Assembly: GCA_050011875.1 (NCBI GenBank)
Contig: JBEKIG010000028.1
Location: forward strand, 1 to 15,659
Direction of reading: 5' to 3'
From: Nitrososphaeria archaeon
GTDB taxonomy: Archaea; Thermoproteota; Nitrososphaeria; JACIWG01
Length of the DNA stretch: 15,659 nt
The notes under the pieces are model-generated. The model worked only from the letters and a program-made list of their open reading frames with translations. It did no database searches and was not told where the DNA came from. This document shows, one piece after another, positions 1 to 9,355 of the stretch. The position numbers were made by a program, and so were the translations under genes. The first letter of the stretch is position 1, and every line of letters begins with the position of its first letter.

Positions 1-119
1 TTGAACTATAAATGTTGCAAACAATAAAACAAAGTATTTGTAAGACATATTTATCCCTATTGTTTATGGGTTGTTACTCGATCATTTTATTTTAATATCA
101 CTAGCGATATACTGCAAAC

Positions 120-213
120 AGCGTGAGGGTAGAATCGCTATCTACATTCAGCGTTTAAGCAAGATCGCTCCTTGCATTCGGGTGTTATTTGCCTAGGCCA
201 TCACCCAGTCTAG
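120..213 (+). ncRNA. Three tandem hairpin/pseudoknot-like units in the capsid 5' leader
   Basis: Stems GTAGA/TCTAC (129-145), GCAAG/CTTGC (159-175) and CTAGGC/GTCTAG (193-213). Loop segments CGCT, CGCT and CACCC are complementary to upstream AGCG (120), AGCG (150) and GGGTG (180). Units are linked by ATTC. Confidence 0.6.
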
Positions 214-254
214 AAAGTCTATATACTTCATGGTTCTTTATAGGAGCATTAAAA

Positions 255-2991
255 ATGCCTATAACAACTACAAGCACATTGCCAGCGCCTAAACCAAGCT
301 GAATACGGGCGCGTTAAACTAGGAATGATTACATGGAAAGTCTAAACATAAATACGAAACTCTGTTATACTGATATAGGTACGGCAGACTATTTCATTTG
401 GGAGTATTTATGCAAGATAACCAGAGGCAAACGCATACAGATTGGGCGTATATTGCAGGAATTATGGATTCTGATGGGTGTTTTATGATAACGAGACATA
501 AAAGAAAAACACAAAGAAAAAATTATCCTCATATGGTTGAGGGATGGTCTTGGACTTATATGCCCTCAGTTAAAGTAGCTATGATAAATCACGAAGCGAT
601 AGAATTTATTGTAGAAAAAACCCAAGCAGGTACGTGTAATCTTTATGGCGCTCGACCTTCGAGACCCAATTCTCATCCGATGTATGAATGGGGAATAAGA
701 AATCGCAAGCAGATAGTACCATTTATTGAAAATATAATGCCTTACTTAAAAGTTAAAAAACAACGGGCGCAATTCTTATTAGATTACTGTAAAAAAGCAC
801 AATATTTGGAAACTAATGCTGCTAAATATTATGGGTTAAGTAAGGAAGAGCTAGAATACAGGGAAAGTTCTTATCAACAGATGAAAGAACTCAATCGTAT
901 TAAAGTAGCCGCAACGACTAAGTTTCCTGGGCCCGTGAGGGCATGCGATAGTCTTATCTCATAAGAAATTATGAGAGGGAGGAATAACAAGACTCTCCGC
1001 TGCGATGCCGATAGCTAACATGATACACAAAATTCGCAGTCATCAAGTAAAAGAGTGGTGCAGCAATCATTCAGTTATAAATTGCTGTCAGTGCCAGTGC
1101 CTAAACTTATTGGGCACTTAAAATCTTCTCTGATAGACTTGGAAGCCGAAGTGGTATTTAACTAACCGGTAACAAGGGGCAAGATTATGAATAAAGATAA
1201 TAAACGCGAAAAATGCGATGGTGTAGACATGGCAACAGGGTTGAGAGATTGTTGGAATTTCTTTTGCAAAAAAGATCACACTTGGCGTTTTTACGAACTT
1301 CATAATCAGCCTGAACGTAGCAAGCGAGAAGACTCTTGCAAGAAATTTCATTGTAAGAGATGCGGTGCTCTGAACACGATTCGATAAGGTCGTGAGGGAT
1401 AAGTAGAGAAAGTCCCCGCCTAGAAATAGGTCATAAAAGTAACAGATTGAATATGATCCACAAGATCCCAGCCATGCGTAAAAACATGCCTAGGAATGGT
1501 GGTACTACGCTTAGAATGAGACGATTGAGTTTAGTCGTCTTTAAATCTTCTCTAATTGACTTAGAAGCCTGAGTCCAAGGCGATAAGGGGCAAGCGCAAG
1601 CAGCCTGAACGACTTAACGAGAAGACCGAGGAAAAATGAAAAAAAGATTGAATTATAAATGTTTTTTCGATATATTATATATGAATTCATTTTGGCTGTT
1701 CCTTACGTCCAAAGTAAATTTAAAAGATATAACTAAGCTGTCAATGCAACCCTGACGGGCCGGCGACAGCTTTTTTTATTATTCAATTTTTCCTCGGATG
1801 CGAAAGTCTGAACTCGACAAATAGGGTTGTTGAAAGTCGAGAGGGAGATCCGAAGAGGTTTCCCCGCTTAAATAATAAGAGAAGATCGTGGGTTCGATTC
1901 CCACCAAGAAAAGCAAGATTTCTTGTAGCTGAGCGGTACAGCGCCTCATGTATTTAAGTCACAAAAGTAACAGATTGATAATCCGTTAAATACAGCTATG
2001 GTGCCATTAGGGACTACAGGGGTTACGCCTCCTGCGCAGCAATTGACGGCCATAGACATCGATGCGAAAATATCATTTTATGGGACGTTTGTTCAGCTCA
2101 ATGAACAAGTTACATTACAGAACCAAGATCCCGTTTTGAACGAATGCGCCGCACGTTTGGGTGTATCACTCCGTTAATGCAGACTGAAGATCAATTGACT
2201 AGAGATATGCTGGCAGCTACAGCAGGCTTTATCAATTGTACTGGCGGAGTTAACGGTAAGTGATTATTGCCGTTAAAAAATCTCTGGTGATTGACTTGGA
2301 CCCCGAAGCTTAAGAGCCGGAAACAAGGCGGAAGGCGAGAGCCACCGTGAACGACTAAGTCCAGAGAAGCCGAAAGGCTAAGCGATAGTCTGATCTCATG
2401 CGATAAGTATGAGAGGGCGATCCGAAGAGGTTGCCCCGCCTAGAAATAGGTCATAAAAGTAACAGATTTATGGATAATCCTACAGAGATCACCTTGCAAG
2501 ACTGCGATACTGTAACTCAAACTCTTTTGACTAACAATGCTTATACCATCATGGATAACATTGAAGGTGAAAATAAGTTCGGTACAGCTCCAGTCCGTGA
2601 TGCGTATTTTGCAATGACAAGTACGAAGTTAACTTCTGACTTGAACAACGTTAATACGTTCATACAGAAGAACCAATATCCTGCTCCAATGAATGCATTG
2701 CGTTCAGAGTGGGGCGCTGTGGGTAACCTTCGTTTCCTTGTCAGCTCAATCGGCTCAGTAACGCCTGCAGCTTCTGCCAACAGTGCAGATGTGTATAACA
2801 TCTTCTGCGTCGGCATGGAGGCCTATGCGTGCGTTGAACAAGACGGATATAGCGCATCTTTCATCTACCGTCCACCTATATATGACGGCCCACTCGCGCT
2901 TAACGCTTCAGTCGGATACAAATTCGCTGAAGTTCCTCGTATTACGAACGATCTGTTTATTATTAACCTTCGTGCAACCAAGAGATTTTAA
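255..2991 (+). CDS. Major capsid protein (N4 gp56-like, HK97 fold), spliced: join(255..290,1058..1102,1450..1525,1978..2174,2180..2257,2473..2991), 316 aa
   Basis: SD AGGAG 242-246, ATG 255. Joined exons read MPITTTSTLPAP|VQQSFSYKLLSVPVP|NMIHKIPAMRKNMPRNGGTTLRMRR(Y)|NPLNTAMVPLG...NEQVTLQNQDPVLNECAARLGVSLR|QTEDQLTRDMLAATAGFINCTGGVNG|DNPTEIT...EWGAVGNLRF...RATKRF. Total 951 nt, in frame. Every junction is U|...G|. Family assignment is from recalled sequence resemblance. Confidence 0.88.
363..371 (+). promoter_or_regulatory. Possible extended -10 promoter for the intron endonuclease
   Basis: TGnTATACT about 40 nt upstream of ATG 410. No convincing -35. Confidence 0.4.
410..964 (+). CDS. Single-motif LAGLIDADG homing endonuclease (184 aa; the ORF track starts at TTG 398)
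   Basis: Motif WAYIAGIMDSDGCF and C-terminal 'IMPYLKVKKQRAQFLLDYC' typical of the family. SD GGAG 401-404 before ATG 410. Located inside intron 1. Confidence 0.88.
   Translation: MQDNQRQTHTDWAYIAGIMDSDGCFMITRHKRKTQRKNYPHMVEGWSWTYMPSVKVAMINHEAIEFIVEKTQAGTCNLYGARPSRPNSHPMYEWGIRNRKQIVPFIENIMPYLKVKKQRAQFLLDYCKKAQYLETNAAKYYGLSKEELEYRESSYQQMKELNRIKVAATTKFPGPVRACDSLIS
1103..1449 (+). ncRNA. Group I intron 2 (347 nt)
   Basis: P1 AGTGCCT(1096-1102)/GGGCACT(1112-1118) with U-G. P3 TCTTCTC(1124-1130)/GAGAAGA(1326-1332). Variant P7 G(T)AGCA(1317-1322)/TGCTC(1366-1370). P8 1333-1341/1351-1359. Terminal G1449. Confidence 0.85.
1187..1387 (+). CDS. Small Cys/His-rich putative zinc-binding protein inside intron 2 (66 aa)
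   Basis: AAGGGG upstream. Pattern CxxxHxW...CKRCG, reminiscent of DUF1660-type small phage proteins. Starts in the P6 extension (stem 1183-1191/1299-1307) and reads through the core. Confidence 0.45.
   Translation: MNKDNKREKCDGVDMATGLRDCWNFFCKKDHTWRFYELHNQPERSKREDSCKKFHCKRCGALNTIR
1636..1755 (+). CDS. Possible 39-aa peptide in the P8 loop of intron 3
   Basis: GAGG SD then ATG; MKKRLNYKCFFDILYMNSFWLFLTSKVNLKDITKLSMQP*. No recognisable homology, and the SD is sequestered in P8. Confidence 0.25.
   Translation: MKKRLNYKCFFDILYMNSFWLFLTSKVNLKDITKLSMQP
1735..1777 (+). terminator. Intrinsic-terminator-like hairpin within intron 3
   Basis: AAGCTGTC(1735-1742)/GACAGCTT(1765-1772) enclosing CCC-TGAC-GGG, with a 7-T run at 1771-1777. 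Confidence 0.45.
1876..1950 (+). ncRNA. Circularly permuted tRNA-like domain (3' half before 5' half) in the P9 region of intron 3
   Basis: Variable loop AGATC; T arm GTGGG-TTCGATT-CCCAC (1888-1904); acceptor 3' strand CAAGAAA (1905-1911); linker AGCAAGA; acceptor 5' strand TTTCTTG (1919-1925); TA; D arm GCTG-AGCGGTA-CAGC (1928-1942). No anticodon loop. Confidence 0.8.
2175..2179 (+). other. 5-nt TAATG interruption of the capsid frame (candidate micro-intron or stop-start split)
   Basis: CTC CGT|TAATG|CAG ACT. Removal restores ...VSLR-QTEDQL... It follows U and ends in G, and is bulged from a 10-bp helix with 2241-2250. Confidence 0.8.
2258..2472 (+). ncRNA. Group I intron 4 (215 nt, compact, no ORF)
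   Basis: P1 TTAACGGT(2250-2257)/GCCGTTAA(2269-2276) with U-G. P10 GATTATT(2262-2268)/GATAATC(2473-2479). P3 TCTCTGG(2281-2287)/CCAGAGA(2361-2367). P7 GACTA(2353-2357)/TAGTC(2386-2390). P8 AGCC-GAAA-GGCT. Terminal G2472. Confidence 0.92.
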
Positions 2992-3000
2992 GGAGATATC

Positions 3001-3975
3001 ATGGTTAATATATTCAATGGTTCTTTTACTTCTACTGGTTCTGCTCAGTTTCTCAATATTCGTGGCGGCCTCGATACTATCGAAGTCTGGAACATGACAG
3101 AGTTGGCTGCTGCTAATGACAGCCATGGCGTAAGCTATGCATGGAATCTTGGCATGGGCTACAATGATGCTATTGTTACAATGCGTAACGCAGCAGCAAC
3201 TGCAGTCAATGCTACGACAGCAGCAACACTTACTGTTCCAGGATTTATAGTTTACGATGCTTCTACTCAAGTCAATGGCCCAACAATAGCCACTACTGAC
3301 TTTGGTACAACTGCTCATGTCGTGCTAACTGGCAATACTACCGGCGTATCAGTCGGCAGTATTATCCGTTTGCAGGAAATGACAGGTGCAAACCAAGTTA
3401 ATGGTATGGACTATACGGTTACAGCAGTTAACCCAGGCGTCAGTATGACTCTCGGCTATACTCCTGTAACTGTTGCAGCTGCTGGTGCCGGTGCCTATTT
3501 CACGGTGCCATTCAATAAGTGGTATCCACAAACCCGTTATATTGCATCCATATCACAAGCAGCGCAAGCTGTTGTTGTGTTCACTGTAACGCATGGATAT
3601 CAAGTAGGACAAGCGATTCGCTTCCATGTCGGATCATTTAACGGCATGAAGCAGATTGATGGGTTAGAGGGCAATATTGTTGCTGTTAATACAACTACCA
3701 ACTCGGTAACTGTTGATATTAATACAACAGCATTTACAGCTTTCGTATGGCCTACTACTGCAGTAGCCGCTGCACCGTTTACTCAAGCATATGTTAACCC
3801 GATTGGCATGGATAGTTCTTTGGCGTTAGCCCAAGTACCACCTGCTGATACATTAACTGATGCTATGCAGAATATCATGACCACAGGAATTATCCTTGGT
3901 GCTGGTATTACAAGCCCTGCAGGATCTGTAAACGACGTCATCTATTGGCGCGCTACTAGTTCTTTTAACCTTTAA
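3001..3975 (+). CDS. Virion structural protein (possible capsid decoration), beta-rich FCCH-like modules
   Basis: Strong SD AAGGAG. Immediately follows the capsid gene. Ala/Thr/Val/Gly-rich, with motif 'IASISQAAQAVVVFTVTHGYQVGQAIRF...GMKQIDG'. Confidence 0.7.
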   Translation: MVNIFNGSFTSTGSAQFLNIRGGLDTIEVWNMTELAAANDSHGVSYAWNLGMGYNDAIVTMRNAAATAVNATTAATLTVPGFIVYDASTQVNGPTIATTDFGTTAHVVLTGNTTGVSVGSIIRLQEMTGANQVNGMDYTVTAVNPGVSMTLGYTPVTVAAAGAGAYFTVPFNKWYPQTRYIASISQAAQAVVVFTVTHGYQVGQAIRFHVGSFNGMKQIDGLEGNIVAVNTTTNSVTVDINTTAFTAFVWPTTAVAAAPFTQAYVNPIGMDSSLALAQVPPADTLTDAMQNIMTTGIILGAGITSPAGSVNDVIYWRATSSFNL

Positions 3976-3982
3976 GGTTTAT

Positions 3983-4004
3983 GGGGGGCATAGCCCCCCT
4001 CTTT
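3983..4004 (+). terminator. GC hairpin, possible weak terminator or processing stem after the head genes
   Basis: GGGGGC-ATA-GCCCCC followed by CTCTTT; short U tract. Confidence 0.45.
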
Positions 4005-4019
4005 AACTTAGGAGAAATC

Positions 4020-4439
4020 ATGGAAGTTGCAGCACAAACCACAGATTATACAAAGAAACCAGCTAAATCAGACAAAAAGGTCAATCTCAAGTACCAACAT
4101 GATAAAGATCGCGAACCAGTTCGTGGTATCTTCAGATTCTATGAATGTGCCGGCGCTCCACTCAGTTTTGTTTATAAGGCATATAAAGAAGATGATGTTG
4201 AACGATTTGATTTAACAGATGGTTGTATTTATACAATACCGCTAGGAGTTGCGAGACATCTTAACAAGTCTGGACGTTATCCTATACATGCATTCAAACA
4301 AGATGAAGCAGGAAATGTAAGTTCCCATATTGGCAAGAAAGTTGCTCGTTATGGGTTCCAGAGTTTGGAATTTGTTGATATCTCAGATGTAGAAGCCACT
4401 GGTTCTGACGGTATCATCGAAGTAACCGAGGCTCCATAA
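4020..4439 (+). CDS. Hypothetical phage protein (139 aa)
   Basis: SD AGGAG precedes ATG 4020; the track start at 3981 lies in the hairpin. The stop overlaps the next start (TAATG 4437-4441). Confidence 0.75.
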   Translation: MEVAAQTTDYTKKPAKSDKKVNLKYQHDKDREPVRGIFRFYECAGAPLSFVYKAYKEDDVERFDLTDGCIYTIPLGVARHLNKSGRYPIHAFKQDEAGNVSSHIGKKVARYGFQSLEFVDISDVEATGSDGIIEVTEAP

Positions 4440-4807
4440 TGGCTGAACCATTAATTCCTGCGTATCCTCATCCTCAATTTCAACCTGCAATGCGCATCAT
4501 AACCGCCATTACCAATGGCTTTCCTGCTGTAGTAACTACTTCTTTTGCCCATAATTACTTAACAGGACTCGTCGTCCGTCTAGATATACCAGATGATTAT
4601 GGCATGGTGCAAGCAAATCAGCAATTCGGCCCGATAACTGTACTCAGTGATACAACATTTTCTATACCAATAGATACAACTTTTTTTGATGCTTTTGTGG
4701 TTCCTTCATCGGCTGTAATCTCCACATTAGCACAGGCTGTTCCAATGGCTGAAGTAAGTTCGCAATTATATCAGGCTGTGCGCGATGTTGCACCATATAT
4801 ATATTAG
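4439..4807 (+). CDS. Small virion protein with FCCH-like beta module
   Basis: 'IITAITNGFPAVVTTSFAHNYLTGLVVRL...GMVQAN' resembles the module in 3001..3975. Translationally coupled to the upstream gene. Confidence 0.7.
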   Translation: MAEPLIPAYPHPQFQPAMRIITAITNGFPAVVTTSFAHNYLTGLVVRLDIPDDYGMVQANQQFGPITVLSDTTFSIPIDTTFFDAFVVPSSAVISTLAQAVPMAEVSSQLYQAVRDVAPYIY

Positions 4808-4815
4808 GAGTTGCC

Positions 4816-5877
4816 ATGCCATTACCACCTACAGCGACACCAAGCTCGACACTGGAAACTATAAAGATAAAAGTTAGAAGATTGACCCGATCTCCTTCTG
4901 AAGCTCAATTATCAGATGCAGATCTTAACCAATATATTAATACATTCTTGATCTACGACTTTCCACAGCATCTACAGCTCTTTGATCTGAGAACAACATT
5001 TACCTTTTTTACTGAACCTTTTATAGATACCTATAGTACTAATACTACTGATTCTACAAGCCCGTTCTACGACTTTAATAACAAATATACATCTATTCAT
5101 GAGCCAGTTTATATTGCTGGATATCAGCAATTCTATACTCAGTCTCGCGAACAATTCTTTGGTATTTATCCAATGGTCAATTCTATACAATCCATTGGCG
5201 CAGTTGGTGACGGCGTAACGACAACTTTTACAGGAGTGATTAACTTTGGCGGCTATACGGGTGCTATTCAGCCTAATCCTACAATTGGACCAGCTTTATT
5301 ACAGAACAACGTCTTGTTTAGTTCCGTTGATATCAATGGTGACGGGTGCAATCTTAATGATGTACCTGTATCGGCGACTTTAGGAAACTTAGTTGGAACA
5401 GCAGGCGCGGGCACTAATACAATAAATTATACAACAGGAGCATTTGATATTACTTTTGCAGTAGCTCCAGCTATTGGCGCACCAATTAACTCCCAGACTA
5501 TTCCATATCAACCAGCTTTACCTCAGGCAGTACTTTATTACGATGATACATTCACATTGCGTCCAGTTCCTGACCAGCCATATAGAGTGAACTTGGAGGC
5601 CTATGTGCTGCCTACAGTGTTGCTCGCTAATAATACAGCTCCCGATATCCAACAATGGTGGCAATATATAGCTTATGGTTCAGCAAAAAAGATATTCGAA
5701 GATCGCATGGATCTGGAATCTGTTCAGCAGATAATGCCAGAATTCAAGATGCAGGAATCGCTGGTGATTCGTAAGACTATAAAACAATATACCAATGAAC
5801 GAACTGCAACTATATATACTGAACAAACTGGTGGTCTAACGAGCGGTGGATTCGGTTGGGGTTCAGGTAACATTTAA
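4816..5877 (+). CDS. Putative head-tail adaptor / tail tubular protein
   Basis: SD AGGAG. N-terminal 'LETIKIKVRRLT...LNQYIN' and C-terminal 'LRPVPDQPY.V...QYIAYG.A' pattern typical of podovirus adaptors; gene position fits. Confidence 0.6.
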   Translation: MPLPPTATPSSTLETIKIKVRRLTRSPSEAQLSDADLNQYINTFLIYDFPQHLQLFDLRTTFTFFTEPFIDTYSTNTTDSTSPFYDFNNKYTSIHEPVYIAGYQQFYTQSREQFFGIYPMVNSIQSIGAVGDGVTTTFTGVINFGGYTGAIQPNPTIGPALLQNNVLFSSVDINGDGCNLNDVPVSATLGNLVGTAGAGTNTINYTTGAFDITFAVAPAIGAPINSQTIPYQPALPQAVLYYDDTFTLRPVPDQPYRVNLEAYVLPTVLLANNTAPDIQQWWQYIAYGSAKKIFEDRMDLESVQQIMPEFKMQESLVIRKTIKQYTNERTATIYTEQTGGLTSGGFGWGSGNI

Positions 5878-5889
5878 TAAGGAAATAAA

Positions 5890-6474
5890 ATGGCTTACAT
5901 AGCAAATATTCCAGCAGCTGCCGATCAGATATCAGCTTCGCAGGGACAGATTCAGGGCAACTTTCAGTCTATCGGTACTGTATTTGATCAGAACCATGTA
6001 GATTTTAATGCCGGTGCAGGAACAGCAGGACAACATACATTCGTGCAACTACAGCCTCAAGCGCCAACTCCTGCTTTTGCAGGTATTCCAGGATTCTGGG
6101 CTAGCACTGCGGCAGGCAATCCTATTATGGCGCATTCTGCTGCGGGAATTGATTTTGATATTACAACATTAGTTAATTCTATAGTTACTGGCGGTATAGG
6201 CCAAGGTTCTCTCACATTGCCTTGTGGATTGATTGTTAAATTTGGCAAAAATCAAGGTTCTGGGACTGGGATAGATACTATAACTTTCACTAATCCATTT
6301 TCTGCAAATGGTCAATGTGCAGCATTCGTAAGCGTTATATCTACTAATATGCCTGCAATATCTAATGCGGCAGTTTATTCATTGACCAATACAACATTGC
6401 GAGCAAAAGCAACTAACTATGCAGGCACTGCTTATAATAATGCCTATTATTATTGGTTTGCTGTAGGTGTATAA
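5890..6474 (+). CDS. Putative short tail fibre-like protein
   Basis: SD AAGGA. C-terminal 'LTLPCGLIVKFG...TITFTNPF...YWFAVGV' resembles gp53-like fibre tip domains. Confidence 0.6.
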   Translation: MAYIANIPAAADQISASQGQIQGNFQSIGTVFDQNHVDFNAGAGTAGQHTFVQLQPQAPTPAFAGIPGFWASTAAGNPIMAHSAAGIDFDITTLVNSIVTGGIGQGSLTLPCGLIVKFGKNQGSGTGIDTITFTNPFSANGQCAAFVSVISTNMPAISNAAVYSLTNTTLRAKATNYAGTAYNNAYYYWFAVGV

Positions 6475-6483
6475 GGAGATATC

Positions 6484-8787
6484 GTGGCTTTTGACAGATT
6501 TTTAATCGCTCCGTTCTCTGAAGGTCTCAGGACGGATCTTGAACCTTGGCAGATTCCAGAGGAAAGTTTCGCTGAGCTTTATAATGCCTATGTATGGCGA
6601 GGCAGAGTGCGTAAACGCTTTGGGGGTCGATTGATGGGTACCGGTTCTACGGGAGCACTTACTGCGCCTTTGTTGTCCCGTTTTAGAATTAATCTTGGAA
6701 CAACTCCTATAGCGGCACCCATTGCATTGCCCGGTAATACATTTAATCCAGGGCAACAAGTATCTGTTGGCGACAATATATTTACAGTTATTACTGTAAC
6801 TGCTGGTGCAAATGCCATGCTTTCTACTAATGCTGCCGCAACTGGAACAATAACTATTACAGCGGGCCCTCCTATAACAGCTACATTTACCGCGACAATT
6901 CCAGGAATACCAGCAGGCACAGCTATTTTCTTCTATCCAGGTCTACCTGTTATGGGATTGACTAACTATGCTACAGGGCCAGTAAATGATCATCCATCGA
7001 TAGGATTTGACACTCGATTCGTGTATCAATTTACCAATGGCTGGGACCGTCTTGGCGTGGCGCAGAATGTTATATTCCATGGGCAAGATTATGATTTCTT
7101 TTGGACATGCAATTGGACTGGCATTGATGATGCTGCAGTAGTTCTATTTGTGACGAACTATAATGCAACAGTCTCTGGAAATCCAGCAGCAACCGATGAT
7201 CCAATGTGGTATTATAATGCAGTAGCTGCTGTGCCGTGGGTTCAATTCGCGCCGCAAGTTATTGTAGCCAATGGAGCAATTTTACAGCAGAATATAGTTT
7301 CAGCTCAGATAATATTGCCCTTTAAAGATCGCCTAGTGCTGCTTAATACTATTGAACAGACAACTACGGGTGGAGGATCTCCGACGCTCGTAAATACTCA
7401 ATATAAAGCACGCTGCAGATATTCACACAACGGTAGCCCATTAGATTCAAATGCCTTTATCCAGGTCAACAATACTGGCTTTGACGGCGGTGGTTATATT
7501 GATGCAGCTACCGATGAGGCAATAGTATCGGCAGAATATATTAAAGATCGCTTAATCGTTTATTTCGAACGTAGTACATGGGAACTAGCCTATACGGGCA
7601 ACCAAGTATTACCTTTCTTATGGCAACAAATCAATACAGAGCTGGGTGCAGAATCAGTATTTGCCACAGTACCTTTCGATAAAGCAGTACTCGGTATAGG
7701 CAATACGGGTGTGCATGCCTGCTCAGGCGCAAATGTTGAACGTATAGATACCAAGATTCCTGACCAGATATTCCAGATTGCCAACAAGTCAGAAGGGGTT
7801 CAGCGAGTTGTAGGTATCCGTGATTACTATGTAGAGATGGTCTATTGGACCTTCCCTAATTCTGCAGAATCTGCAACATTTAAATACCCTAATCAAGTGC
7901 TTATTTACAACTATAAGACTAATTCTTGGGCCTTTAATGACGATTGTATAACCATGTTCGGCTATTATGAGCAGCAACTAGGTACAACATGGTCTTCATT
8001 AACGATGCCTTGGAGCGACAACAATTCAACGTGGGGTTCAGGAGTCCAACAATCAGAATTTAGACAAGTAATCGCAGGTAATCAACAGGGCTATGTATTT
8101 ATTGTAGATCCTGATACGCCTAATAATGCTCCGGTAATGTCTATAACAAACATTGTAGCTACTGGTACTAACAATATATTAACACTTACCGTTATAGATC
8201 ATACTCTGCAAACACAAGTAGATAATAATGGCGATTATATTTATATAACTAATTGCCAGGGAGTAACAGGTATCAACGATAATATATATCCGGTGCAAGC
8301 CGTAGTTGATTCTAATACTATTCAGATTGCAGTTCCTGGTTATGCAAGTACATATTCAGGCGGTGGCAGTATAACGCGAGTCTCTATGATCGATATACTT
8401 ACAAAACAGTTCAATCCATATATGGATCAAGGACGTGATGTTTATATAGCTAAAATAGATTTTGGTGTTTTAGCAACAAGTTCAGGAGAACTTACAGTCG
8501 ATTATTCTCCTTCTGCTACGCCATTGTCTATGGTAAAAGATGGTGCCACTACTGGCACACTCATGGGTACAAGCGTATTGCAAACATATGCATATCCTGA
8601 TGTGCCTATAGAATATACATCTACTAGACTTTGGCACCCATTGTATTTCCAAGTTGATGGTGAATGTATACAATTCGAGATATATCTATCTCAAGCGCAG
8701 ATAACTAACACATTAATAGCGTTCCAAGATTTCTGGCTAGAAGGAATGGTTTTGCATTGTATGCCTGTTAGATCGAGACTATCATAA
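6484..8787 (+). CDS. Putative tail nozzle / DNA stabilisation protein (P22 gp10 / T7 gp12 analogue)
   Basis: 767 aa, SD AAGGAG with GTG start. Beta-propeller-like repeats (FKDRLVLL / IKDRLIVYF / VLIYNYKTNSW). Follows the adaptor gene. Confidence 0.65.
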   Translation: MAFDRFLIAPFSEGLRTDLEPWQIPEESFAELYNAYVWRGRVRKRFGGRLMGTGSTGALTAPLLSRFRINLGTTPIAAPIALPGNTFNPGQQVSVGDNIFTVITVTAGANAMLSTNAAATGTITITAGPPITATFTATIPGIPAGTAIFFYPGLPVMGLTNYATGPVNDHPSIGFDTRFVYQFTNGWDRLGVAQNVIFHGQDYDFFWTCNWTGIDDAAVVLFVTNYNATVSGNPAATDDPMWYYNAVAAVPWVQFAPQVIVANGAILQQNIVSAQIILPFKDRLVLLNTIEQTTTGGGSPTLVNTQYKARCRYSHNGSPLDSNAFIQVNNTGFDGGGYIDAATDEAIVSAEYIKDRLIVYFERSTWELAYTGNQVLPFLWQQINTELGAESVFATVPFDKAVLGIGNTGVHACSGANVERIDTKIPDQIFQIANKSEGVQRVVGIRDYYVEMVYWTFPNSAESATFKYPNQVLIYNYKTNSWAFNDDCITMFGYYEQQLGTTWSSLTMPWSDNNSTWGSGVQQSEFRQVIAGNQQGYVFIVDPDTPNNAPVMSITNIVATGTNNILTLTVIDHTLQTQVDNNGDYIYITNCQGVTGINDNIYPVQAVVDSNTIQIAVPGYASTYSGGGSITRVSMIDILTKQFNPYMDQGRDVYIAKIDFGVLATSSGELTVDYSPSATPLSMVKDGATTGTLMGTSVLQTYAYPDVPIEYTSTRLWHPLYFQVDGECIQFEIYLSQAQITNTLIAFQDFWLEGMVLHCMPVRSRLS

Positions 8788-8809
8788 ACGTTTAACCTGA
8801 AGGGAATTC

Positions 8810-9355
8810 ATGGCCAATCCGACACAATATGGCGCATATATACCAACGACGAATGTTTGGGATACAGAATCTGAACATGTAAAGTCTATGGATGTTACTA
8901 AGCCAGAGTTCAAAGAACTACTTGTACGGCTCTTTCAGGATCTGAATCGCATGTCATTATCGGTGAATGTTCGTGATGCCGGGATATATGATACAAGTCA
9001 GTTCGTTAATGGACAGGTATACTTTCCGAATCCTACGAGCGGTACATCTGCTACGCAATCATCTAACTTTCGCCAAGTATATCGTACCGTTGTTAATATG
9101 GGTGCGTTAAAAAATACTGGAACTACAACAGCGGCCCATAATATAACCTGCGATGCGAATACTACTTTTACCAGAATATATGGAGTAGCTACAGATCCAG
9201 TAGGGCTGACATATATACCATTGCCTTACATTGATGTTAGCGGAGCGTTTAATATTCAGTTGTATGTAAATAGTACCAGTGTAAATATAGTAACAGCGAG
9301 CAATCGTAGTAACTTTACGATATGTTATGTTGTTTTAGAATATTTACTTTATTAA
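8810..9355 (+). CDS. Hypothetical virion protein
   Basis: 181-aa ORF with SD AAGGGA, tightly packed in the operon. Confidence 0.7.
   Translation: MANPTQYGAYIPTTNVWDTESEHVKSMDVTKPEFKELLVRLFQDLNRMSLSVNVRDAGIYDTSQFVNGQVYFPNPTSGTSATQSSNFRQVYRTVVNMGALKNTGTTTAAHNITCDANTTFTRIYGVATDPVGLTYIPLPYIDVSGAFNIQLYVNSTSVNIVTASNRSNFTICYVVLEYLLY

Follow-up and report, generated by a model that had tools for sequence, protein, structure and literature searches.

A five-nucleotide insert in a phage capsid gene as a candidate remnant of a group I intron, with proposed excision by a neighbouring intron

The stretch of DNA analysed here (the window) is a whole 15.7-kb contig of 15,659 nucleotides (nt), C28, which is assigned to a 2.6-Mb binned genome (G000) and carries phage structural genes. 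Its major capsid gene, of the N4-gp56 family, lies at 255–2991 and is broken by four group I introns and, between the codons for R118 and Q119, by the five letters TAATG (2175–2179). TAATG is probably a vestigial group I intron, excised by the catalytic core of the fourth intron (intron 4) with the help of a guide encoded in the exon between them. The insert is real, and its site, P1 and guide letters are those of real sibling introns (P1 and P10 are the helices of a guide with the 5' and the 3' exon, respectively). Sequence comparisons favour excision: relatives have an intron at the same site, a diverged phage (L207) carries TATG there together with a compensated guide, and inserts without a ribozyme core occur at G88|T89 of related capsid genes.

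The TAATG insert

As the preliminary description had read from the letters, TAATG follows T2174, ends in G2179 and breaks the capsid frame. TAA (2175–2177) stops a frame that is open from 1998, and ATG (2177–2179) opens the frame QTEDQL.... All five homologues fetched at full length read GVSLRQTEDQL without a break, and R118 and Q119 were placed by tblastn at 2172–2174 and 2180–2182; TAATG is therefore a clean insertion of 5 nt between two codons. In the four sequencing runs examined by unitig (dated 2017–2025), a single unitig covered 1419–2463 in 4/4, with 0–1 other letters and no insertion or deletion (indel), and TAATG was also found on four viral and two metagenome contigs. An assembly or sequencing error is ruled out by these runs and contigs. 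All contigs with TAATG were 99.94–100% identical to the window; they are therefore one clone, within which no covariation can be read.

A scan of genome contigs returned no further copy of TAATG. Other scars at R118|Q119 were sought with a pattern of five free positions, which matched the clone and, by chance, L010, and with the pattern TRR plus 0–30 nt (blind to TATG), which matched the clone only; a pattern for intron 4 matched the clone and four chance stretches.

The 40 residues around the break (96–135) were free of indels in 67 homologues, down to 31% identity. From this and from general knowledge of HK97-like folds, the break probably falls in the long spine helix of the capsid protein. 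Codon differences from the capsid gene of L011 (132 synonymous, 12 non-synonymous) indicate that the gene is otherwise intact and under purifying selection.

A group I intron at the same site in relatives

A scan for the intron family's 3' tail joined to the QTED codons returned 47 stretches, 44 of them capsid genes. A full-length sibling intron ended exactly at R118|Q119 in 5 of the 44 (L114, L138, L100, L110 and L127) and 4 nt upstream of Q119 in 39. The 5' exon of L114 and L138, GGTGTATCACTCCGT, is identical to that of the window, the exons otherwise being 69–73% identical; their intron begins TAAATTGGCGGAGT and ends in CAGATTAG, and its guide letters are those of the exon guide of the window (described below). 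L110 and L127 have the exon letters AATGCGT and the guide GGCGCATT, a compensated P1. By these comparisons R118|Q119 is proven to be a group I 5' splice site in relatives. The tails of sibling introns read ATTG, TATG and AATG. Since the site is a real intron site and both the first letters (TAA...) and the tail (...TG) of the insert fit, TAATG is best seen as an intron remnant, and this origin weakens the case that a perfect stop-start overlap was selected as such.

Among relatives 94–97% identical to the window protein, P0272 and P0274 have an unbroken junction. In P0277, which is 95% identical to exon 5, the open reading frame (ORF) begins within a tail that reads like that of an intron and lies immediately upstream of QTED. 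The 16 bases before the insert (2159–2174) are the same as those before the full-length intron of L114 (L114:3791–3806), the exons otherwise being 69–83% identical; this flank fits co-conversion with an intron, or constraint by the guide.

The exon-encoded guide

The preliminary description had proposed that a stretch of exon upstream of intron 4 pairs with the junction left after removal of TAATG. The pairing was found as described: CTGGCGGAGT (2241–2250) matches ACTCCGT|CAG (2168–2174 plus 2180–2182) at 10/10 positions and places a U2174–G2244 wobble at the cut. The hairpins assigned to the intervening exon (2192–2198/2232–2238, 2200–2204/2227–2231 and 2208–2212/2220–2224) are likewise those of the predicted fold. 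The guide leads directly into the 5' strand of intron 4 P1 (2250–2257). In the predicted fold of exon 4 and intron 4, the seven P1-like pairs had probabilities of 0.55–0.85, and the fold of 2160–2260 was mildly better than those of shuffled sequences (z = -1.84; 9/200 shuffles as good).

TAATG has U2174 before it, G2179 as its last base and 7 + 3 base pairs (bp) with 2241–2250, and in its 5 nt there is neither a catalytic core nor an internal guide. It is not a group I intron in the strict sense, and it may work like the substrate part of one. A free-standing ribozyme that carries the guide was considered and rejected: GGCGGAGT occurs only once in the window, and beyond the known introns the intron of L114 matched G000 and G001 (a 20-kb record) weakly (E 0.15 or worse).

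A second micro-insert

On the minus strand of L207 (5467–5470), a 4-nt insert lies at R118|Q119 in the context CTCCGT-TATG-CAAACAGAAGAT. The flanking exons have diverged considerably from those of the window (54/63, 65/78 and 165/231 nt identical, that is 86%, 83% and 71%). TATG holds no stop codon, the upstream frame continues for 19 codons, and there is no Shine–Dalgarno (SD) sequence before the ATG. Because there is no stop and the frame is different, the L207 insert is not a stop-start junction. The insert is evidently under no constraint of length or frame, an argument against its translation, and its retention through considerable divergence argues against a dead gene.

The exon guide of L207, TTGGCGGAGT, pairs at 10/10 positions with ACTCCGT|CAA, CAA/UUG taking the place of CAG/CUG in the window, and adjoins the P1 strand of the intron at 144|145. 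This intron is the orthologue of intron 4: it is 78% identical over 161 nt, has the same guide (GCCGTTAA) and has a compensated P10 (ACAACC/GGUUGU, in the window AUAAUC/GAUUAU). Among 130 distinct capsid sequences compared, 10 have an intron at 144|145, and GGCGGAGT was found only in the two with a micro-insert. An alignment of homologous capsid genes had been suggested as a check on whether the micro-insert accompanies intron 4 and covaries with the guide; in the window and L207 it does both. Elsewhere in the capsid gene of L207 lie a mini insert of 31 nt (88|89) and full-length introns (97|98, 144|145 and 221|222).

Core-less inserts at G88|T89

Chained tblastn searches followed by two scans gave 46 loci with 31 distinct mini inserts of 28–53 nt at G88|T89 of related capsid genes (L121, L134, L170–L209 and L211–L213); in L206, for example, the mini insert lies at 1297–1333 and its full-length partner intron at 1385–1597. 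All 31 follow GGT and end in G. The final triplet is TTG in 10, AAG in 7, ATG in 6, TAG in 3, CTG in 2, and GAG, ACG and CCG in 1 each. The lengths fall in all three frames (4, 15 and 12 inserts), the inserts carry in-frame stops, and 12 of the first 25 contain no in-frame ATG. Every mini insert has its own guide, which pairs 6/6 with the 5' exon UAYGGU (P1) in 31/31, with one double compensatory change (UAUGGU/GCCAUA) and one wobble variant, and over 3–6 bp with the 3' exon ACCUA (P10). In intronless homologues GGT encodes G88 in 17/64, ACC encodes T89 in 21/64 and TAC encodes Y87 in 20/64. The mini inserts of the first scan, in which the codons of G88 and T89 were left open and TAC or TAT was allowed for Y87, have GGT and ACC in 25/25 and TAC in 24/25; this codon bias supports the P1 and P10 pairing. 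By their sequences, the mini inserts could not accommodate a group I core, being much too short, and yet show every feature of a group I intron on the substrate side. No mini insert shorter than 28 nt was found at G88|T89 among seven stretches (six capsid genes and one chance match).

An insert of more than 150 nt was also present in 26/26 complete genes with a mini insert, although some such co-occurrence is expected in an intron hot spot. The exon that follows the mini insert breaks off at about 27 nt (15 distinct inserts), 51 nt (10, and one more cut by a contig end) or 87 nt (5). Between the guide and the last G, the mini inserts have a tail of 11–23 nt, which pairs, with covariation, over 10–14 bp with exon that ends at the P1 strand of the partner, and the site of pairing moves according to the partner (exon base about 2–9, 30 or 67). 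Tails paired more stably with their own exon than with those of other loci in the 27-nt class (-11.5 against -6.9 kcal/mol; own exon best in 11/15), the 51-nt class (-14.8 against -10.6 kcal/mol; 5/10) and the 87-nt class (-15.9 against -14.2 kcal/mol; 3/5). The tail is read as a tether that sets a small P1/P10 module beside the P1 of the partner, whose core would then splice the mini insert. On this comparative evidence the mini inserts are probably non-autonomous group I introns. Small inserts of this kind, linked to a partner intron, are common in the gene family and general in this group of phages.

Proposed excision by intron 4

A full-length group I intron would once have occupied R118|Q119, and TAATG would be its remnant, left without ribozyme or guide. 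In the transcript the 5' flank ACUCCGU would pair with GCGGAGU (2244–2250) of the downstream exon in a P1-like helix with U2174–G2244 at the cut, and the first bases of the insert would lengthen this helix before step 1. After step 1, CAG (2180–2182) and CUG (2241–2243) would form a P10-like helix, with G2179 as the terminal G. As the guide is joined to the 5' strand of intron 4 P1, the small helix would be held at the mouth of the catalytic core of intron 4, which would perform both steps before splicing itself out. The junction CUCCGUUAAUGCAG would become CUCCGU|CAGACU, and an ordinary capsid protein of 316 amino acids (aa) would be made. The excision itself, intron 4 as its catalyst in preference to other siblings, and the order of the steps are what we infer from the arrangement.

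More broadly, it seems fairly probable that TAATG and TATG are the smallest members of a natural class of non-autonomous group I introns of 4–53 nt, spliced by the core of the next full-length intron. Members of this class would have lost their ribozyme, and the smallest also their guide, and would be held to the P1 of the partner by base pairing with the exon. A micro-insert can travel with intron 4 by co-conversion, because only 78 nt lie between them. An addiction to the intron would follow, in which loss of intron 4 would be lethal for the phage.

Points against excision and alternative explanations

Several observations weigh against excision. The P10-like helix is only 3 bp long, and its pairs had a probability of about 0.03 in the predicted fold of the window, because the helix prefers to extend into the insert (U2175–G2243 and A2176–U2242), and of 0.01 in that of L207; real group I introns alternate between P1 extension and P10. 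The guide could be a chance match at a level of about 5%: 3/64 matching segments of intronless homologues paired 10/10 with the window junction (64/80 loci parsed). Against their own junctions (66/80 loci parsed), intronless homologues paired 10/10 in 0/66 and 9/10 in 6/66. The baseline is 8–9/10, since the conserved peptides SLRQ (with Q119) and (T/V)GGV fix those positions, and a junction-spanning helix of equal or greater length with another partner was found in 4/80 intronless homologues. The guide taken alone is thus not very surprising. L207, the sole precedent for an exon guide, is a single contig, and its TATG is one A short of TAATG; common descent, or co-conversion with intron 4, may account for the insert in both phages, which hence would not represent two independent origins. 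The mini inserts, unlike TAATG, keep their own guide in 31/31. The Rfam group I intron model, run over the whole window up to E = 1, matched none of the four introns; their assignment to group I is therefore carried entirely by the boundaries, the guides and a hand-assigned, covarying core. No RNA run was present among the listed runs that hold the words of the window, and the protein collection contained no full-length spliced protein of the clone (the cluster of P0001, the closest homologue, has one member). TAATG is also a perfect stop-start overlap, like that at 4437–4441.

This last point underlies the strongest alternative, a split capsid protein, which is unlikely. TAATG would stay in the mRNA as an intron scar, translation would stop at UAA and restart at AUG, and pieces of 118 and 199 aa would form one HK97-like subunit; the helix 2168–2176/2242–2250 would keep the restart site covered until it was opened by the upstream ribosome. 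The preliminary description had already weighed such halves, and the sequence and ORF list bear out both their lengths and the recurrence of TAATG at 4437–4441, where the same letters couple two genes. The overlap is exact and both halves are intact. An in-frame TAA at the start and ATG at the end are frequent in sibling introns, from which such a scar could arise by internal deletion, and ATG is in frame with the exon in 9/10 mini inserts that have CCGTATG. Yet the ATG at 2177 has no SD, as had been noted: neither AGGAG nor GAGG occurs within 15 nt, while one or other of these motifs precedes the remaining genes read. The break falls in the indel-free region of residues 96–135, probably the spine helix. 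TATG of L207 has no stop, opens another frame and again has no SD. Translation of two pieces also leaves the 10/10 guide and its compensating change unexplained. Of the first 25 mini inserts, the 12 without an in-frame ATG, together with four that end in TAG or have stops right at the exon, mean that translation restart is not a general solution in this gene family. A literature search found no two-piece major capsid protein.

Excision by something other than intron 4 is a good deal less probable still. Another sibling core that has already left the transcript might act in trans, or the insert might be removed by some unknown activity of the host; four related cores come from the same transcript, and the partners of the mini inserts differ in position and type. 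Against this, none of the own guides of the four introns matches ACUCCGU, and the guide and the mini-insert tethers always adjoin the P1 of the next downstream intron.

Only slight probability is given to a dead or helper-dependent gene, that is, a recent lesion in a prophage or a gene complemented by co-infecting relatives. All copies of TAATG belong to one clone, the contig is binned with a 2.6-Mb genome, RusA and helix-turn-helix genes lie upstream, and close relatives (P0272, P0274 and P0001) have an intact junction. However, 20 of 23 listed runs (2017–2025) hold at least 98% of the sampled words, no insert-free variant was seen in 4/4 runs, the rest of the gene and contig is open, and the diverged phage L207 keeps a micro-insert at the same site; the relatives, on contigs of 30–39 kb in metagenome-assembled genomes (MAGs) of many phyla, look like misbinned phage genomes. 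Recoding, in which the ribosome would frameshift or hop over the insert, is hardly credible: the insert places a stop immediately after codon 118, a situation known from shifty stops and from the T4 gene 60 take-off site, but there is no slippery heptamer and no codon matching CGU for landing before CAG, the window needs a -1 or +2 shift and L207 a +1 shift, and the last in-frame codon of the 31 mini inserts varies (eight triplets) and never matches the take-off codon GGU.

The introns, the capsid gene and the phage

The six exon pieces of the capsid gene were mapped by tblastn of P0001, which is 97% identical to exon 5 (Table 1). The joined exons encode 316 aa and a stop, collinear with intronless homologues of 314–317 aa.

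Table 1. Positions of capsid gene features in the window
Feature	Positions	Strand	Remarks
Capsid exon 1, residues 1–12	255..290	+	P0001 tblastn, 100% identical
Group I intron 1, LAGLIDADG ORF 398–964	291..1057	+	Interrupts codons 12|13; P1 GCGCCU with GGGCGC
Capsid exon 2, residues 13–27	1058..1102	+	P0001 tblastn
Group I intron 2, small Cys-rich ORF 1187–1387	1103..1449	+	P1 GUGCCU with GGGCAC; 76–83% alike to L114 intron
Capsid exon 3, residues 28–53	1450..1525	+	P0001 tblastn; ends with first base of Y53 codon
Group I intron 3, tRNA-like insert 1868–1960	1526..1977	+	P1 AGACGAU with GUCGUCU
Capsid exon 4a, residues 53–118	1978..2174	+	Last 7 bases (2168–2174) are 5' strand of P1-like helix
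TAATG micro-insert, candidate 5-nt intron	2175..2179	+	Between codons R118 and Q119; also stop-start overlap
Capsid exon 4b, residues 119–144	2180..2257	+	2180–2182 are P10-like 5' strand; internal hairpin 2192–2238
Exon-encoded guide, CUG + GCGGAGU	2241..2250	+	Pairs with CAG (P10-like) and ACUCCGU (P1-like); adjoins intron 4 P1
Group I intron 4, proposed catalyst	2258..2472	+	Helices assigned by hand; last G 2472
Capsid exon 5, residues 145–316 and stop	2473..2991	+	Starts GAT 2473

Each of the four introns is preceded by T and has G as its last base (T290/G1057, T1102/G1449, T1525/G1977 and T2257/G2472), as had been described. The end of intron 4, earlier put at 2469, had to be corrected to 2472 from tblastn and the joined exons. 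In each of the four, the U of the 5' exon meets a G of the internal guide in P1 (U290/GGGCGC, U1102/GGGCAC, U1525/GUCGUCU and U2257/GCCGUUAA). The helices assigned by hand to intron 4 are P1 (2250–2257/2269–2276, with U2257–G2269), P10 (2262–2267/2474–2479), P3 (2281–2287/2361–2367), P4 (2295–2298/2324–2327), P7 (2353–2357/2386–2390) and P8 (2368–2379); P1 was also present in the predicted fold. A common core, with hand-assigned, covarying P3, P4, P7 and P8, was recognized in introns 2, 3 and 4 and may resemble the classic P, Q, R and S elements of group I introns. Across siblings P7 (GACUA/UAGUC, GACUG/CAGUC and GACUU/AAGUC) and P3 (UCUCUGG/CCAGAGA, UCUUCUC/GAGAAGA and UCUUUCC/GGAAAGA) covary, as does P4 between intron 3 (CUUA/UAAG) and introns 2 and 4 (CUUG/CAAG). 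In subtype, intron 4 agrees with the partner introns of L206 and L175, at a mean column identity of 80%. It ends in TTTATG and is 3 bases longer there (2464–2472) than the CAGATTG tail of introns 2 and 3; bases 2470–2472, the last three, form an ATG that shares the frame of exon 5, and TTATG is likewise the end of the L207 orthologue.

The LAGLIDADG ORF of intron 1 matched Pfam LAGLIDADG_1 with E 1.1e-4 (23.5 bits, cut-off 23.1). The small Cys-rich ORFs with CxxC pairs in intron 2 (1187–1387) and in the three introns of L114 had no Pfam or PHROG match and may have degenerate or novel homing functions. The tRNA-like module of intron 3 consists of a T-arm (GUGGGUUCGAUUCCCAC) followed by a D-arm-like hairpin; it matched Rfam YrlA below threshold (35.4 bits, threshold 69), was not called as a tRNA by ARAGORN, and is absent from the L114 intron at the same site. 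Over the whole window, Rfam gave only sub-threshold YrlA and tmRNA pieces and ARAGORN no tRNA. Core pieces of the intron family (matching window 1585–1622, 2369–2400 and 1119–1185) occur on other contigs at much greater depths (up to 187); other genomes of these communities are thus rich in related introns.

The capsid protein matched PHROG 1357 (major head protein) with E 4.4e-12, and its family profile matched the solved capsid proteins 9bgn, 9d82 and 9e99 (E 1.8e-12 to 1.5e-10). Similarity to the N4-gp56 family was found for 816 of 1433 candidate proteins at E <= 1e-3; among the 120 best matches listed, some are named 'N4-gp56 family major capsid protein' or Pfam PF25209 and many neither. 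Across loci L099–L213 the gene (950 nt) is an intron hot spot with up to five interruptions per gene, full-length inserts lying after residues 12, 27–31, 52/53, 79, 88, 97, 104/105, 117, 118, 122–124, 144, 166, 177, 190, 221 and 269. No second capsid gene was found in G000 or in G001, about 5 kb of the phage genome lying outside both.

In a longer copy of the phage, RusA, the large terminase, a P22-like portal and an M15 peptidase are encoded upstream of the capsid gene. Also upstream of the window, in L153 (same phage, 5560–9105), about 3.5 kb between large terminase and portal hold only short ORFs, mostly on the opposite strand; further introns or mobile genes may lie there. The best protein matches to cultured relatives reached at most 27% identity, and the 'phages' collection held no DNA match to window 1–4000 (near mode only) or to intron 4 (distant mode). 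Because contigs of relatives (30–39 kb) are spread over MAGs of many unrelated phyla, the place of the contig in a 2.6-Mb bin is probably a binning error.

Comparison with known systems

Self-splicing group I introns are known from phages, such as those of the T4 td, nrdB and sunY types. TAATG resembles these, and the sibling introns of L114, L138, L110 and L127, in the U before the cut and the final G; with the siblings it also shares the site and a 3-bp P10, and with those of L114 and L138 the P1 letters (ACUCCGU with GCGGAGU and a U–G wobble). It differs in having neither core nor guide: the strand that serves as guide belongs to the 3' exon, 61 nt further downstream, and is kept in the mRNA. 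The mini inserts at G88|T89 are like TAATG in lacking a core, in the preceding U and final G, in their P1 and P10, and in a helix that ends at the P1 of a partner; a full-length sibling intron follows at 27–87 nt, and at 78 nt for TAATG. They have their own guide and a separate tail that pairs with the exon, whereas for TAATG the exon plays both roles.

Stop-start cistrons, exemplified in the window itself at 4437–4441, have the same five letters as 2175–2179. At the capsid gene such coupling would split one conserved fold in an indel-free helix region, without an SD, and the overlap is not kept in L207. Programmed translational bypass is known from T4 gene 60 and from mitochondrial 'byp' inserts of 27–55 nt. 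As with TAATG, a short untranslated insert interrupts a coding sequence and a stop lies beside the take-off codon, but here there are no matching take-off and landing codons, and boundaries and complementarity follow group I rules. In phage Aeh1, nrdA is split by a homing endonuclease gene. There too an essential gene is broken and the phage survives; nrdA yields two polypeptides and the element remains, whereas in the capsid gene only 5 nt remain and repair at the RNA level is favoured.

To our knowledge, every natural group I intron described to date has a ribozyme of its own, intact or in pieces, and none borrows that of a neighbour. A literature search found no paper on core-less group I introns in phages (supplementary intron tables lay outside its scope). 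The comparisons made here suggest that TAATG would be a new, dependent kind of intron. If so, inserts of 4–53 nt that borrow the core of a neighbour would be to introns what non-autonomous transposons are to transposons. They would also provide a natural case of a ribozyme acting on a second substrate, and would show concretely how a selfish intron can make itself indispensable to the gene that it occupies. Gene callers should then treat tiny frame-breaking inserts in phages as possibly spliced, rather than as signs of pseudogenes or split genes. Being small, the system lends itself to a direct test with a 550-nt RNA, GTP and Mg.

In chemistry, the proposed reaction matches most closely the engineered trans excision-splicing reaction. 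In PMC2532722, engineered group I ribozymes use P1 and P10 to remove internal segments as short as one nucleotide, bounded by U and G. A short segment is excised and its flanks are joined across a bulge, as is proposed for TAATG. In that system the guide (RE1/RE3) lies in the ribozyme and the reaction is designed and carried out in vitro, whereas TAATG is natural, its guide is in the exon, and its presumed catalyst is the neighbouring intron, which is intact and belongs to the same transcript.

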